DNA of 64,000 nucleotides from Eledone cirrhosa (Eukaryota). A model generated the notes under the pieces. That model ran no database searches and was not told the DNA's origin. It was given only the letters and a program-made list of their open reading frames with translations. Made by a program: the position numbers and the translations under genes. Numbering within the stretch: the first letter of the stretch is position 1; each line of letters opens with the position of its first letter. The stretch is from contig OZ024744.1 in NCBI GenBank assembly GCA_964016885.1, positions 87,110,001 through 87,174,000 of the forward strand, in the 5' to 3' direction. Below are positions 22,675 through 60,014 of the stretch, in pieces.

Positions 22675-22863
22675 GTTATTCCGGGTTGAATCGGAGGTAA
22701 CCACAGTAACTAAGGTACTCAATACATATCAGAGTATAAAAGTTTTAATATAGAAGAGATTCTACAGGACTTGAACTGTTTCATTCTTTAGAAATCATCA
22801 GGAATCAGATGAGATTACTGATGAGTTCTAAAGTATGAAACAGTTCTAGTCCTGTAGAAACTC

Positions 22864-22870
<7 letters not shown>
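22675..22870. mobile_element. Family A fold-back element with CTGATGA..GAAAC on both strands
   Basis: Plus strand ctgatga-gttctaaagtat-gaaac; minus strand ctgatga-tttctaaagaat-gaaac; flanked by (TA)n. Confidence 0.65.
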
Positions 22871-22933
<63 letters not shown>

Positions 22934-35163: not shown

Positions 35164-35586
35164 TGTGTATATATATATAGAACGGCGATGAATTAGTTTT
35201 GCGAGGTTTTTGATATGAAATCGTGTGTCGAAACAAATATTGTTATACTTAGGGATAAACTATATATATGTGTTTGTGTCTATATTGTATCTGTATTATT
35301 TTTTACCGTTGGTCAGTCAATGGCAACATTGAGGACCGAATAAATTAGATTACCGATATAAAAGACACAGAAGCGAATTGCGAAAACCAACCAAACTGTG
35401 AGTGTTTTCTGTTATTAATTCTGGCAATATTACACAAATATGACCCTCCCCAAGTATAACGATATATATATATATATATAAGAATTAAAATACTTGAGTG
35501 CGTTGGAGTAAAACACACTCGTCATATTATAGAAATGACACTATCGGATATAGCACAATGTAATAAATATATATATATATATATAT

Positions 35587-36843
35587 AAAAAGTTTGTCCT
35601 TCATCAGTGATCTTCCAGCCATCATAGGCATTTCATCGCTTTAAAGACCATATACCTCCGGTTGGTGCGAGCAACGGCTAAAAAAAGTCGTTGGGACACG
35701 TAAATAAAGGGGACGCGAGGGTAAACAAACAAAAGGGTGAAGCAACAGAAAGTGAGGAAGAAAGAGACAAGTCCCAGATTTCTATGAATTTAAATTCGGT
35801 GAAATCGTGAACGAGAGAATAAAGACCATCAAACCTGGTTGAAATGTGAGCAAGGAAGGAATTTCGCACAGGTCTAACGGGAGGAAGAAGGGGTCTGGTC
35901 TGCGAATTCGGTAAACATAAGTTCTGTGAAATCGTAGACGAGAGAGAGAAAAAAATTCATACCAGCTTGGCCAGCGTGCGAGAGAATAGAATTACACACA
36001 GGTCAAACGGGAAGAAAGGGGAGGAGGCGAGGTAGTGACAGAGAATGAGTGAGTGAAGGGTGAGGAAGAGGCTAACAGAGAGAGAGACTGCTAGAAAGGG
36101 TAATGATACATAGAACGAAAAAGACGCGTAGCAGCAGAGGAAAAAATACGTGTAAATATGATAATAAGGGCGCTGCGGAGTTGCAAATGGGTTACATATG
36201 AAAAAAGTTTGTCCTTCCGCAGCGCCCTTATCATATTTACACATATTTTTTCTCTGCTGCTACGCGTCTTTTTCGTTCTATGTATCTTTACCCTTTCTAG
36301 CAGTCTCTCTCTCTGTTAGCCTCTTCCTCACCCTTCACTCACTCATTTCTGTCACTACCTCTCCTCCTCCTCTTTCTTCCCGTTTGACCTGTGTGTAATT
36401 CTTTTCTCTCACACGCTGGCCAAGCTGGTATGAATTTTCTCTCTCTCTCGTCTACGATTTCACAGAACTTATGTTTACCGAATTCGCAGACTAGATCCCT
36501 TCTTCCTCCCGTTAGACCTGTGCGAAATTCCTTCCTTGCTCACATTTCAACCAGGTTTGATGGTCTTTATCCTCTATCGTTCACGATTTCACCGAATTTA
36601 AATTCATAGAAATCTGGGACTTGTCTCTTTCTTCCTCACTTTCTGTTGCTTCACCATTTTGTTTGTTTACCCTCGCGTCCCCTTTATTTACGTGTCCCAA
36701 CGACTTTTTTTAGCCGTTGCTCGCACCAACCGGAGGTATATGGTCTTTAAAGCGATGAAATGCCTATGATGGTTGGAAGATCACTGATGAAGGACAAACT
36801 TTTTTCATATGTAACCCATTTGCAACTCCGCAGCGCCCTTATT

Positions 36844-36850
<7 letters not shown>
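35587..36850. mobile_element. Large fold-back element in (TA)n (family C), about 615-bp permuted monomer in each arm
   Basis: 35587-36217 is approximately the reverse complement of 36216-36850. Partial copies at 48866-49152 and 51770-51930. Confidence 0.8.
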
Positions 36851-36882
<32 letters not shown>

Positions 36883-36884
<2 letters not shown>

Positions 36885-47807: not shown

Positions 47808-48857
<1,050 letters not shown>

Positions 48858-49344
48858 TTAATTTATTCCTTCATCAGTGATCTTCCAGCCTTCATTGGTA
48901 TTTCATCGCTTTAAAGACCATATACTTCTGGTTGGTGCGAGCAGCGGCTAAAGAAAGTCGTTGGGACACGTAAATAGGGGGAACGAGCGAGACAGTAAAC
49001 AAACAAGGATGGTAATGCAACGAAAAGTGAGGAAGAGGGAGTCAAGTCCCTGAAATCGATGAACATAAGTTCTGTGAAATCGTTGACGAGAGAGAATAAA
49101 GACCATCCGACCTGGTCGAAATGCGAGTGAGGAAGGAATTTCGCACAGGTCATATATATATATATATATATGAAAATGTTCAAGACGGCAGAGCTCAAAC
49201 CGTTTCGACAGAAATAGCCGTCGAAACGGCTTGAGCTCTGCCGTCAGGGTCTTGAATATTTTCCTATTACCCACTCTATTAAACAAAGTAATGAGTACTC
49301 TGGTGTGTTATGGCCCACCTGGTTCGTTACCACACTTCCTTCGT

Positions 49345-49382
<38 letters not shown>

Positions 49383-49855
49383 TATATATATATACGGAAA
49401 AAATGAAACGATATTTCATTTCCTACTCTTAGTACGGCTGTTACTTAAATATAAGTATGTACACGTACATACATATATGTATACCGACGTAGAGTAGTAT
49501 GTATATATATATATACATACATGCACACATATATATATATGCACGTATGGATTCACCGAATATTTATTATAATGCTCGGTGTGTTTGTAAACAAACATCC
49601 CGTATTAAGCCGTAGTGTCTAGCAACCACCGTTGCTCGTTTGTTCAACACTGACAAAGGAACGCTGTACTAGTTTCAAGCTTGTTAGCTATCGTCAGCAA
49701 CGTATACCTTCCTGCCAGATTGTTGAACGTATATACTTACCTTATGCATATCAGTGTACTCAATAGGTAAGGTTATGTAAAATCCCAGAGTAGACACAGA
49801 GTTATTCGCTTCAATACAACACACGTAAATCGGTACCTACAATCTATACCCAATC

Positions 49856-50012
<157 letters not shown>

Positions 50013-50552
50013 TTATATTAGAGTTTACCAACATATATCTGGTACATATTGTGACGATGGAACTAATTAAGAAAGATACAAACAACATATAATGAAAATG
50101 GAGGGAAACATGAAAAATAAGATATAAATGATACACAAGAGTTTGGAAAGAAAGAAAATGGAGGATGAAGATGAGGAGGCAGTGTAGGATAGAGGAGAGT
50201 GTGACGAAAGCCATGAAGAGATAATTTGACATTGTTTTGTTACTGAACCAACCAATGAACAGGCCGAAATATCAGGATGCTAATATGTACTACGGATAAA
50301 GAACAGCTGAGATGTTTGAACACACAAGTCGTATCTGAAGACCCTTCGAATGCAGAGTCGGGTTCGATCTGTAACAGATGTTGCCTTGAGCCGATCGACG
50401 GAGAATCATGTGTAATATGTTAATAAATTGTAATTTGATGCAATACTGATTCCTCGTCCTTTATCATATTATACTCTGCTCTGCACGAGCATCGAGTTCT
50501 CAACAGGCATACCGTCTACGGGCGCCACATTTACTTGCAACCCTACAACAAC

Positions 50553-50584
<32 letters not shown>

Positions 50585-50630
50585 CACACACACATATATA
50601 TATATATACATATATATATATACATAATAA

Positions 50631-50686
<56 letters not shown>

Positions 50687-50751
50687 ATATATATAAATGT
50701 AAGTATGTATGTATACGTACATACATATATGTATACAGACGTACAGTAGCA

Positions 50752-50876
<125 letters not shown>

Positions 50877-51300
50877 GCACACATATATATATGTACGTAT
50901 CAGTTTACCGAACATTTATTATAATGTTCGCTTTGTTCGTTTGTAAACAAAAGGAAAGTATATACTTTCGAACGTTCAACCATCTGGCAGAAAGGTATAC
51001 GGTGCTGACGATAGCTAACAAGCTTGAAACTAGTACATCCTTCCTGTGTCAGTGTTGAATAAAAAGGTGACGTGGTTGCCTGAACACTGTACGGCGTAAA
51101 TCAGGCTGTCCGTTTGTTTACAAACGAACAAAGCGAACATTATAATAAATGTTCGGTAAACTGATACGTACATATATATATGTGTGCCTGTATGTATATA
51201 TGTATGTACTTATATGTATGTACTTATACATACATACTTACATTTAAGTAAGTGCCATACTAAGAGTGAGAAATGAAATTTCGTTTCATTCTATTCCATG

Positions 51301-51767
<467 letters not shown>

Positions 51768-52169
51768 TAAAGTTAGTCCTTCATCAGTGATCTTCCAAGC
51801 ATCATTGGTATTTCATCGCTTTGAAGACCATATACCTCCGGTTGGTGCGAGCAACGGCTAAAAAAAGTCGTTGGGACACGTAAATAAGGGGGACACGAGA
51901 GTGTAAACAAACAAAGATGGTGAAGCAACACACTATATACACTACATATACAGTATGTATATACTATGTATTATATATATACACCATATATGATGTTGAC
52001 CAAGGGAAAGACAATGGCTAATGCAGCTTGGCACCAGTGGCGTCGCAACTAATATATACACTATACATACACTATATAAATACTACATACACACTATGTA
52101 TAGACTGTATATTATATATACACTACATACACACTATGTATAGACTATATATTATATATACACCATATA

Positions 52170-56594: not shown

Positions 56595-59500
56595 TTACAG
56601 ACACATACTCAGAGAAGGCCCATTCATTCGGGCCATACTTGCTTCTCTCACCCATCTTTCAACAAAATGCTGGGAAGAGAGCACTTCCCTCTCAACCCTG
56701 ATTTTCCTTTTCAAATGAAATTTGAAAAAGTTAATCAGGGCATCACCGAAGAGGTAAGTGCTCGTCTTCAGCCCTTTCAAACGTGTCCACCATACTATCT
56801 CTTTCGCCATGGCCACCAGACAGATAAAAACTGCCTGCCCTTCCCGGCTAAAGGAAGGGGGCGGGGCAATCCTCACGATGGACTCAGCTGATAGCCGGAT
56901 CCGTCCTACACGTGACAGCTGGTGTTCGACATGAACCCACAAGTCAGCAATGCTCGGACACTGGACGAGTGCGTGCAGGACGGTTTCGTCGCACTGCGCG
57001 CATCTCGGACATGCCCGGCTGACGGCACCTCCATGCCTGTAGAGTTTATCCCGAACTGGCAAAGCTCCTCGGTAGCACTGCCAGGCCAGGGATTTCTGGA
57101 AGTTGTCCATAGGCCCCGGCCCGAAAGTCCTTCCGAAGAGATTGGCTAGTTGATTTTCGTCGACGCCGAGAGTTTCTCCAAGTACGTCGTCGCTCTTCCC
57201 CTCCACTAATCCCCTATAGAACGCCAAGGTGGAGTTTCCACCGATCACATTGCCCGATTGGTCGAGGGCTGTGAGCGCCTGAAGACATTCCAGTCTCCAA
57301 GCGCTCCCTCTCGGTCTTCGCTTGACCCAGGACTGCAGCTCCGTCAAGGAGACGAGCTGGGGAAAAACGTGTCTAGCAAACGGCGACCACACCTGATCAC
57401 CGTCGAGGAAGAGGTGGAGATGTCGTAGCCTGAGCGCGTGTCTGCGCATCATCAGCCACGGCATGCCCAGCCCTCCACGTAGCGGGTGTTGACAGCAGAT
57501 GGACCGCCTGACCATCGGAGCGCGTCCCTTCCACAAGAAGCGAAAGAGCAAACGCTCCAGCGCAGTCAGGCGGGGCTTAGGACAAGGGACGACGGTCAGG
57601 CGGTAGTAGATGACGGAGGCGATGTACGCGTTAGCCACCTCCGCTCGACCTTTCAGGGATAGCTTCCTCTCGGCCCATTTCTGGGTGAGAGAAGCCACCC
57701 TGCTCGTCACCTCGTCCCAGTTTTTGTCCGTCTGGAGGTCTGGACCGAACCAGACCCCTAGCAATTTAACCGGTCCGTCCGTCCAGCGCCCGACGACGCT
57801 GTTGGACGGCATGGACCTGCCTCTCCAGGTGCCGAGCGGCAGGCCCACTGACTTTTCCTGGTTGATCATTGCTCCTGTCACCGCTTCGTATTCTCTTAGT
57901 GTAATGCCGATCGCCTCGATGTGTTTGGCGTTCGACACCACTACGGTGACATCGTCGGCATATGCTGACACGGATCGTCCGCATCCTAGTTCGCGCGGGA
58001 CCCCCCTCAACGTCTCCAGTTTGTGCAGTAATGGCTCGAGAGTCAATACGTACAATAGGGACGAGAGGGGACATCCTTGGCGGACCGAGCGCATGATGTT
58101 GAACGGTTCCGAAAGGTGACCGTTCACGCTCACTACTGAGCAGATGTCGCTGTGCATGGCAGCGATCCAGCCTCTGAAGACGGGCCCAAAGCCAGCCGCC
58201 CTCAGGACTGCCGCTAGGTAACGATGGTCGACCCTATCGAAGGCTTTCGATTGATCTAAATTGATCAAAGACCCACCCGTGCCAGGTTCCCTAGCTACCC
58301 TCTCTACGATGTATCGCATGAGGTGGAGGTTGTCGTGGATGGATCTGTGGGGAATGGCGCATGTCTGTGCCTCTCCCACCAGACCACCAACGACAAGCGC
58401 CAACCTCTTTGCTAGCACCTTGGCTAAAATCTTGAACTCTGTGTTTAGCAGAGTTATGGACCTAAAATTATCTATGTTATCCCCCTTGTTCGGATCCTTT
58501 CTCAGCAGCGTCACCGCTCCTCGGCTCACAGAGCTGGGAATTCTCCCGTTCTGTTGCCAGTTGCAGTAGACGTCCGCCAAGAGGCCTCCGAACAAGTTTG
58601 GCATCTGTACGTAAAGTTCATAGGGCAGACCATTCAAACCAGGCGATTTACCCCTTGTACAGCCAGTCATTGCCTCCCGTACTTCAGCGGTTGTTATCGG
58701 CTTTTCGCAACACTCCGCCTCAGTGGCCGAAAGCCGCGGCAGTCCGTCGAGGTAGACACTAAAGTCCATCCCTCGATCCGGCCCGCCACTGCCCCCGAAC
58801 AGTTGAGCGAAGTGTCGCTGAAAAGCTTCACACATTTGCCCGGGATCGAGTAGCATGCGCCCGTCGTGGTCCACCAAAGACCGGATCGTGGCTTTGTTGC
58901 CACGACGCGCCTCCGCCACTCGGGCCCATTGAACGGCTTTCGTCCCCTCGTGTCTGAGAGCACGCACCCTAGCTCTGACAACGCAGCCTTCGTGCTTTGC
59001 ATTGAAGAATTGGTCAAGGGCCAATTTCGCCGCAAGCACGTCGGTCGCGATGCCTTTGCTAAGCGCCTCATCTAATTTTCTAACTAGTTCTCCCTCTGCT
59101 CTATTTTTTTCTATTGATAAAGTCTTACTAAACCTAATGGACTCTATTCTAATCGCTCTTTTCAGAGCAAACCACCACTTGTTGTTGACGATGGCCCCCG
59201 TCAACGCTCGCTTAACTAGTTCGCTAATCCGGTCTCTGTAAGCCTTGCGCGCTGGTAAGGACGCGTTTAGCTTCCAGTAGCCGTGTCCTCGCCTATGAAG
59301 CCTATCTAAGTCAAGCACACAGATCACGAATTTGTGGTCCGTGTAGCTGACTATCTTGAATTGTGGACAGCCTATGCTAGACCTATCTATTTCCCTACAA
59401 AATACTCTATCTAGATATGATCTGGATGACCCTATGCGATTTGTCCAAGTCCACATTGGCACATTCGGGAAATCCAATCGGTACCTGTCAGACAGTTCAA

Positions 59501-60014
59501 AACGCCTGAGCAGGTTGGTGAGGCTCTTGCATCCTCCACCCCTATCCGCTAATCCCACACAATCCCAGCGTGCATCTAAGATCCCGTTCCAGTCGCCCAC
59601 TAACACTAAAGAGCGGGACGTTCCAAGAAAAGTCTCCAGACGCCGGAAGAAATCAGGCCGCCCTGCTCCTGTCGGGGCATAGACGGCCACTAACCTGAAA
59701 GCTTGCCCGTCTCCGCTGGTCACGTCCAGCACCACCAACTTACCTTCTGGGTCCAGGAAGATGGCCCGTATGGCAAGATCCAAACCTCACCGAAAAAGCA
59801 CAGCAACTCCTCCCCCCGATCCCGGACGGCTGGGAGATGCGTACACATCGTAGCCGCCGAAGATCGGTGCGAAAGCCTGTGCTTCGGAGATTCTGGTCTC
59901 GCTGATGGCCACTACATTTATGTTTAGTGACCTGAGGTCGTTGAGCAGGTGGCCCTGCTTCGATGACGACCCCAAGCCACGCGCATTTATGCTGCCTATT
60001 CTGAGTGAGGTCAT
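56595..60014 (-). CDS. LINE ORF2 (APE endonuclease, reverse transcriptase, CCHC), with one in-frame TGA at 59787-59789
   Basis: SINARGL, ISET, YAPT, VGDWN, LDRVF and TDH (APE); KSPG, LDQSKAFDRV, VRQGCPLS and AYADDV (RT); CPRC..ETVLHALVQC. Track ORFs 59787-60014 and 56595-59783 are in the same frame (LFR*GLDL). Confidence 0.93.

Follow-up and report, generated by a model that had tools for sequence, protein, structure and literature searches.

The element described here is a palindrome at positions 35587..36850 of a 64,000-nucleotide stretch of Eledone cirrhosa DNA, the whole of which is called the window below. Its arms form an inverted repeat with 95.1% identity across 1235 alignment columns, and each is slightly longer than one unit of a 615-nt monomer, numbered here 1-615 from window positions 35588-36202. 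A preliminary description of this DNA had reported a palindrome with arm periods of 615 and 611, (TA)n on both sides, partial copies near 48866 and 51770, a CTGATGA and no open reading frame, and each of these observations holds: the first 15 nt of the left arm recur at 36203 and the start of the right arm at 36827, CTGATGA lies at 36784 (+) and 35607 (-), and the single stop-to-stop frame of at least 100 amino acids in the element (35957-36259, 100 aa) has no Pfam match. The arms had also been said to start at different points of one circle. Two different starting sites are indeed used, but the outer ends are not arbitrary; they fall on fixed sites at monomer positions 612 (site B) and 572 (site A). 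The features at the locus, with the two partial copies, are the following.

35568..35587, no strand: (TA)n target, left
35588..36217, minus strand: inverted arm of 1.02 monomers (630 nt), without tail, starting at site B; its RNA sense is the minus strand
36159..36198, minus strand: internal 40-nt copy of the tail within the left arm, reading through site A and the monomer junction
36216..36217, no strand: head-to-head junction with 2-nt microhomology
36216..36847, plus strand: direct arm of 1.03 monomers (632 nt), with tail, ending at site A
36808..36847, plus strand: tail of 40 nt, bounded by start sites B (36807) and A (36847)
36848..36883, no strand: (TA)n target, right
48848..49151, minus strand: older partial copy from site B, 83.9%, its ribozyme fold decayed to 28 of 33 pairs
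51758..51930, minus strand: partial copy from site B, 92.5%, with the ribozyme fold at 31 of 33 pairs

The arms differ by 11 substitutions at 569 compared sites, and the monomer carries a degenerate internal duplication (about 127 nt, 69%). Contigs from four sequencing runs, belonging to two studies, cover the element, and none spans it whole.

The family to which both arms belong, family C, is represented by 882 exact matches in the genome for a single one of its 34-mers. In a monomer search of the 3.0-Gb genome the best 40 of 3587 first-look candidates were scored, and the copies analysed below come from 90 loci (three queries) and five wider regions, placed on a concatemer ruler. This sample reduces to 81 distinct insertions, or 80 once one near-duplicate is removed; it consists of the best hits of queries that needed a full unit, the junction or positions 1-73, and long copies are over-represented in it. 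Family C is young, since the median divergence of 102 of its units from the family majority is 1.6%.

Mapping of copy ends, which the preliminary description had proposed, revealed in these 80 insertions two fixed outer sites, a variable other end and head-to-tail multimers of up to 4.0 units per copy. All 59 single-armed insertions begin at site A (45 copies) or site B (14 copies), which lie 40 nt apart and both read UCA/UAU in the sense RNA (the slash marks the site), and their opposite ends are spread over the monomer; (TA)n adjoins the fixed end in 56 of the 59. The remaining 21 insertions are two-armed, and their arms always meet head to head, sharing microhomology of 0-5 nt (one has a 2-nt insert). 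Both outer ends are fixed in 18 of these, and all 18 pair one A with one B; in the remaining three, one end is odd or gapped. A fourth query, made from the tail, gave 30 loci, ten with an arm of at least one unit and six two-armed, two of the latter being new and both A+B. The pairing therefore stands at 20 of 20 two-armed copies whose outer ends are both fixed, a result with a chance of about 1.5e-9 at the single-arm ratio. Only the inner junction varies between copies of family C, and neither a terminal inverted repeat nor a fixed second end was found in the family. Two copies deserve separate mention. One (L231:2974-3813) shares both breakpoints with the window's left arm, is 96.9% alike, and lies in a different flank followed by a 200-N gap; it is either a chance match or an unresolved sister palindrome. 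In the other (L006:1109-1421), one arm begins at monomer position 40 inside a Neptune-type 3' UTR, at a short shared stretch and not at (TA)n.

The element had been named as the best candidate here for an undescribed system. For the layout of the palindrome that view is not supported, since fixed 3' ends, a tail at one end, an inverted truncated arm and (TA)n targets are all published for Penelope-like elements (PLEs) in the available text of PMC8557442, PMC11167929 and PMC3846280. The first of these papers (Craig et al. 2021), in the parts available, lists 5' truncation, partial tandems, an inverted 5'-truncated copy and a (TA)n bias among PLE features, gives the tail as 30-40 bp and often present at one end only, and notes non-autonomous multicopy head-to-tail forms in Chlamydomonas. 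A PLE protein studied in vitro cuts and extends both strands, and its reverse transcriptase (RT) starts at two tail-bounding sites without homology to the target (Frangieh et al., PMC11167929, available text). Family C has the fixed 3' end, the one-end tail, the inverted arm with tandems and the microsatellite target. In truncation, tandems, inverted arm, tail, (TA)n and two RT starts it agrees with PLEs including Naiad, Neptune and the non-autonomous MRC1, as far as those three papers could be consulted. Unlike the PLEs described there, it has no open reading frame and consists entirely of a 615-nt unit present in multimers; both of its start sites appear to be primed by TA, and the strict A+B pairing of arms is counted here. 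The palindrome layout is thus ordinary PLE architecture, and the rewired hammerhead described below is the unusual part.

The genome is rich in elements with a GIY-YIG endonuclease (10,597 candidates, of which the best 150 were scored and 45 loci fetched). Locus L121 has a 938-aa frame with RT and GIY-YIG domains by Pfam, and L123 (L123:351-4065 and downstream) a stretch of 1096 aa from stop to stop with an RT domain; on the cysteine linker described in the available text of PMC8557442, their sequences are called Neptune-type, and L121, L123 and L134 are called young autonomous elements of that type. The L123 element combines an inverted arm without tail and a tail of 38 nt, and in L134 one of the two arms is tailed and the other is not, so that autonomous RT plus GIY-YIG PLEs of this genome show the layout of family C. 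A minimal type I hammerhead is present in the L134 family, and descriptors found none in the L121 and L123 families. That family C is a non-autonomous element mobilised by PLEs is highly probable.

Which enzyme would move it now? Cephalopod Naiads are described as long-inactive remnants in the available parts of PMC8557442, and an exact Naiad-type motif has no match in this genome; for these two reasons a Neptune-type enzyme may be the current driver. None of the 45 GIY-YIG loci, which were top hits of chosen queries, is an element with an N-terminal endonuclease, all readable endonuclease motifs being C-terminal, and none shares end sequence with the monomer.

The preliminary description had suspected a non-canonical processing motif, had failed to complete a hammerhead around the CTGATGA, and had proposed folding the consensus and searching it for ribozyme classes. 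Descriptors for hammerhead types I, II and III give no match in family C, and they do find a control in a Neptune-type 3' UTR and five motifs elsewhere in the window. Each monomer nevertheless holds all the hammerhead core bases, in a non-circular S-G-C order recognised by comparing the sister subfamilies D, C', E and F: a stem III strand, H17 and a stem I strand come first, followed after a short linker by GAAA with stem III, and then by stem I and CUGAUGA. The first attempt failed because the blocks stand in this order. With it come a predicted four-way junction, a pseudoknot and a kink-turn-like motif, and the suspicion of a non-canonical motif is supported by core bases, helices and covariation. 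The predicted fold is laid out as follows.

36694..36795, plus strand: predicted S-G-C hammerhead, right copy, 32 of 33 pairs (block model)
36694-97 with 36792-95, plus strand: P2, predicted
36698-36719, plus strand: hairpin, predicted
36721-24 with 36752-55, plus strand: P4, predicted
36726-31 with 36771-76, plus strand: pseudoknot, predicted
36735-39 with 36760-64, plus strand: stem III, predicted
36740, plus strand: H17, with the predicted cut after it
36741-46 with 36778-83, plus strand: stem I, predicted
36757-59, plus strand: GAA
36784-90, plus strand: CUGAUGA
36732..36770 (36732-34 with 36765-70), plus strand: kink-turn-like motif between stem III and the pseudoknot helix (3-nt bulge, G.A, A.G)
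35596..35697, minus strand: predicted S-G-C hammerhead, left copy, 31 of 33 pairs, with a private pseudoknot mismatch; predicted cut after 35651

The fold is predicted in each arm of the palindrome, and a 4-mer locus (L136) carries four cores. Stem II is a single R-U pair that opens into the four-way junction, and both of its strands pair with the upstream strand (P2 and P4); in an equally good reading of the model, P4 would reach G12 and two extra helices would follow A9. The 3-nt bulge with G.A and A.G matches the kink-turn consensus. Subfamily G has an A.U here, and one copy of subfamily F a G.G. A type II reading of the same region (GAAA, UA and a local UGAU/AUCA stem) was rejected, as it leaves stems II and III with 1 bp each and is lost in older copies.

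A generic S-G-C descriptor run over 834,881 bases gave 266 hits, 249 of them family-C-like and the rest variants, a few weak matches and one distant match that led to subfamily G. A 33-pair block model that did not require the core gave 322 hits with at least 27 pairs (168 distinct, 131 with GAAA in place), and the hits without GAAA in place are mostly simple repeats. Modal sequences hold 32 of 33 pairs in family C and all 33 in D, C', E, F and G. Covariation was scored in 10 natural copies, chosen from six related subfamilies, against the block model drawn from family C: 97.9% of 330 cells are paired, compared with 28-50% in slid controls. Two-sided changes occur in 16 of the 33 pairs and in six of seven helices, a score that 1 of 500 shuffles also reached, in a test that ignores relatedness; 10 of the 16 rest on subfamily G alone and six arise without it. 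They include three of six pairs in stem I, two of five in stem III and five of six in the stem I-II helix. CUGA-GA, GAAA and U16.1 do not vary among the 10 rows; N7 takes U, A or C, and H17 is A or C and never G. Identity between subfamilies C, C', D and E is 76-89% in the ribozyme versus 71-84% in the rest, so that the motif is modestly better kept. Nested folding is unremarkable (z -1.0 to -1.7) and yields only P2, the hairpin, the pseudoknot helix and stem III. Rfam returned only hairpin artefacts for the element (25 weak hits) and nothing for a natural multimer, and it missed a control hammerhead too. Judged by this comparative model, the fold is very probably real and selected, and it probably cleaves itself.

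Type SGC hammerheads (HRIMA-1 and variants) were described by Eckert et al. 2023 (PMC10085705) from metatranscriptomes, with none from a known genome. The available text of that paper reports non-circularly permuted hammerheads only from environmental sequence and one bacterium, and states that the SGC ribozymes tested needed stem II for cleavage. Type SGC and the family C fold share the S-G-C order, the full core, a stem I/II linker of about 3 nt and an extra helix tying the far ends of stems I and II. In family C, CUGAnGA, GAAA and NUH stand in S-G-C order, and stems I and III and the stem I-II helix show covariation. The differences, with type SGC judged from the text available, are that in family C an upstream strand completes stem II through the four-way junction (P2, hairpin, P4), that only one R-U pair is found where type SGC has a continuous stem II between blocks C and G, that a kink-turn-like motif joins stem III to the pseudoknot helix, and that cleavage is a prediction in family C alone. 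As modelled, the family C fold is a variant of type SGC. A degenerate scan of metagenome contigs for the motif gave 0 hits.

The predicted rewired fold is common to the sister subfamilies at loci L141-L210, L184 and L211-L230: C', E and D, whose monomers measure about 510-535 nt, F, and the older G. Each of the five has its own fixed end sites adjoining (TA)n; beyond the fold, no similarity of G to the family C monomer was detected, and its loci have no Naiad-type RT motif. The same order of helices and core, with different pairs, can be seen by eye at the 3' ends of Naiad_Obim and Naiad_Ovul in the part of the PMC8557442 supplement inspected. By eye, these two Octopus records also have a K-turn-like bulge and a hairpin whose 8-nt loop is that of subfamily C', and position 10.1-11.1 is U.C in them. 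The Naiad_Esco 3' end from the same supplement fits the fold by eye as well. All three are autonomous elements, unlike the non-coding family C. In the other twelve of the 15 Naiad 3' ends inspected (54 records in total) the fold was not seen by eye, and six ends from bivalves, hemichordate and squid have no S-G-C core by eye. Those of bivalves and hemichordate have a different conserved 3' motif without CUGAnGA, which is possibly another structured RNA, and the nematode and spider 'half-core' ends inspected resemble, by eye, type I with a long stem II. In the available text of PMC8557442, Ovul and Esco are listed as 'HHR_half_core' and Naiads are stated to lack canonical hammerheads. If the model is right, the S-G-C fold would explain why Naiads were thought hammerhead-free. 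Our search of the literature, which lay mostly outside subscription papers, found no account of an S-G-C fold in work on Naiads and permuted hammerheads and, since 2023, no permuted hammerhead with a kink-turn in retrotransposons.

Metazoan non-LTR retrozymes, as described in the available text of Cervera and de la Pena 2020 (PMC7229834) and bioRxiv 10.64898/2026.07.22.740005, are non-coding tandem monomers with one ribozyme per unit, in families of 51-972 bp, and are proposed to be moved by PLEs from circular RNA (circRNA); such circles are documented in other animals (PMC7229834). Family C likewise consists of tandem non-coding monomers with one ribozyme motif each. Retrozymes are defined in those sources by type I hammerheads, whereas the descriptor search of family C found no type I hammerhead in its units, and a circRNA is documented for retrozymes whereas the family C circle is proposed from sequence. 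The monomer is rich in pyrimidines, and a circular fold pairs only 46% of it. The earlier suggestion of a retrozyme-like parasite is supported, the element being non-coding, retrozyme-like and multimeric to 4.0 units; a circle is plausible, and an uncleaved tandem transcript would fit as well.

What served as template? Arms or tandem units of one insertion diverge by 2.0%, and insertions diverge from each other by 3.3%. At common polymorphic sites the 21 pairs of arms show a discordance of 0.36/kb and the 48 pairs of tandem units one of 0.41/kb, compared with 6.79/kb for 9076 pairs of insertions. Lineage variants outside CpG agree within insertions in 37 of 54 cases for arms and 79 of 106 for tandem units, versus 9% between insertions, and among insertion-private variants 17 of 178 (tandem) and 5 of 96 (arms) are common to both units. 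The discordant quarter of lineage variants may reflect recurrent mutation or template heterogeneity. One haplotype per insertion fits a circle, a homogeneous tandem multimer or master, or later gene conversion. A cleaved linear monomer is ruled out as the usual template, with uncleaved multimers remaining, because 882 exact 34-mers read through the predicted cut site genome-wide and (TA)n stands there at only 9 exact places; in the 30 tail-query loci no copy end piles up at that site.

Our preferred reading, to which we give a probability of roughly 0.6, is that family C is a non-coding 615-nt repeat with fixed ends, probably pasted into (TA)n by a borrowed PLE enzyme, with a predicted self-cutting hammerhead and, likely, a circle as template; on the circular template taken by itself we lean slightly in favour. 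Against this reading stand a stem II reduced to one R-U pair and the finding that eight of nine Xenopus retrozyme dimers showed no cleavage. A tandem copy would be transcribed in the sense given by the window's plus strand in the right arm. In each unit of the transcript the S-G-C hammerhead would make one cut, after H17, and ligation would close the released monomer into a circle of 615 nt. Both strands of a (TA)n tract would then be cut by the GIY-YIG endonuclease/RT of a PLE, and one DNA end would prime at site A and the other at site B, each UCA/UAU pairing with a (TA)n end. Each cDNA would run a variable distance, often beyond one unit. Joining of the two cDNAs head to head by 0-5 nt of microhomology would give a palindrome, and joining of one cDNA directly to the target would give a single arm. 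In its fullest form the proposal is that an active hammerhead with new wiring (S-G-C, an upstream four-way junction and a kink-turn-braced pseudoknot), inherited from Naiads and present in thousands of copies in an animal genome, makes a 615-nt circRNA that two PLE RTs copy from both ends of one (TA)n break; this we put forward tentatively, at a little under even odds.

Perhaps the same PLE-driven element is copied from a linear read-through RNA of a homogeneous tandem master, the fold being slow, protein-dependent or a mere binding site for the PLE protein, with no circle. PLEs form partial tandems without a known circle, and 25-31% of lineage variants are discordant within insertions. The missing pile-up of ends at the predicted cut site points the same way, and for one PLE studied in vitro (PMC11167929, available text) mutating the hammerhead left insertion unchanged and the substrate was mainly unprocessed RNA. 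It is difficult, however, to see from such a master why the catalytic core bases and the H-not-G rule at H17 are kept across six subfamilies; a circle accounts most simply for shared private variants and for two arms each longer than one unit, no array of more than 4.0 units was seen, and circles are on record for other animal retrozymes (PMC7229834, available text). We regard a linear master as unlikely, yet as a serious competitor of the circular template.

It seems very improbable that the fold is a functionless passenger, a dead remnant of the 3' end of a Naiad. Stem II is reduced, identity inside the motif is just slightly above that of the rest, and the described long inactivity of cephalopod Naiads (PMC8557442, available text) would suit a relic, but the two-sided changes in six of seven helices, six such pairs arising without subfamily G, and the 32-33 of 33 pairs in the modal sequences of young subfamilies argue against it.

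Rolling-circle DNA elements also give head-to-tail tandems and insert into AT-rich DNA, and at the window locus the start of the left arm lies about 20 nt beyond the point where the right arm has its 5' end, a pattern expected of twin priming. A DNA-based origin (Helitron-like or MITE-like), L1-type twin priming and an assembly fold-back are nonetheless largely refuted by end mapping and arm divergence, and together have only a very slight chance, since no terminal inverted repeat or fixed second end exists and the predicted ribozyme fold is conserved strand-specifically, the inverted arm's outer end stays at A or B wherever the junction lies in other two-armed copies, a behaviour not expected from twin priming, and the window's arms differ in sequence and end points, with 21 of 80 distinct insertions having their own two-armed form.

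Strict A+B pairing of arms that carry a single haplotype provides evidence from the genome for priming of both DNA ends on one template, and because of it both the integration mechanism of PLEs and the identity of the mover of animal retrozymes become testable. A high-copy animal S-G-C example with extra domains, in an RNA of 102 nt, would extend the known fold. The published view of Naiads as elements without hammerheads would have to change, for those of cephalopods at least, and retrozyme counts made with standard descriptors would be too low.

Several further families in the window, non-coding and flanked by (TA)n, have type I hammerhead motifs: 47810-51413 (+51005, -49697, -48221), 51388-51764 (-51582), 22748-22871 (-22801), -10467 and -833. 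The full type I descriptor matches at -10467 and four other places, and many of these families are palindromic; the type I-bearing (TA)n families are ordinary retrozyme-like PLE passengers. The window also holds a LINE on the minus strand at 56595-59786, with a 1063-aa frame carrying endonuclease, RT and zf-RVT domains. Outside the window, L024:268-1198 has four type I hammerheads at a 310-nt period and is another retrozyme array.
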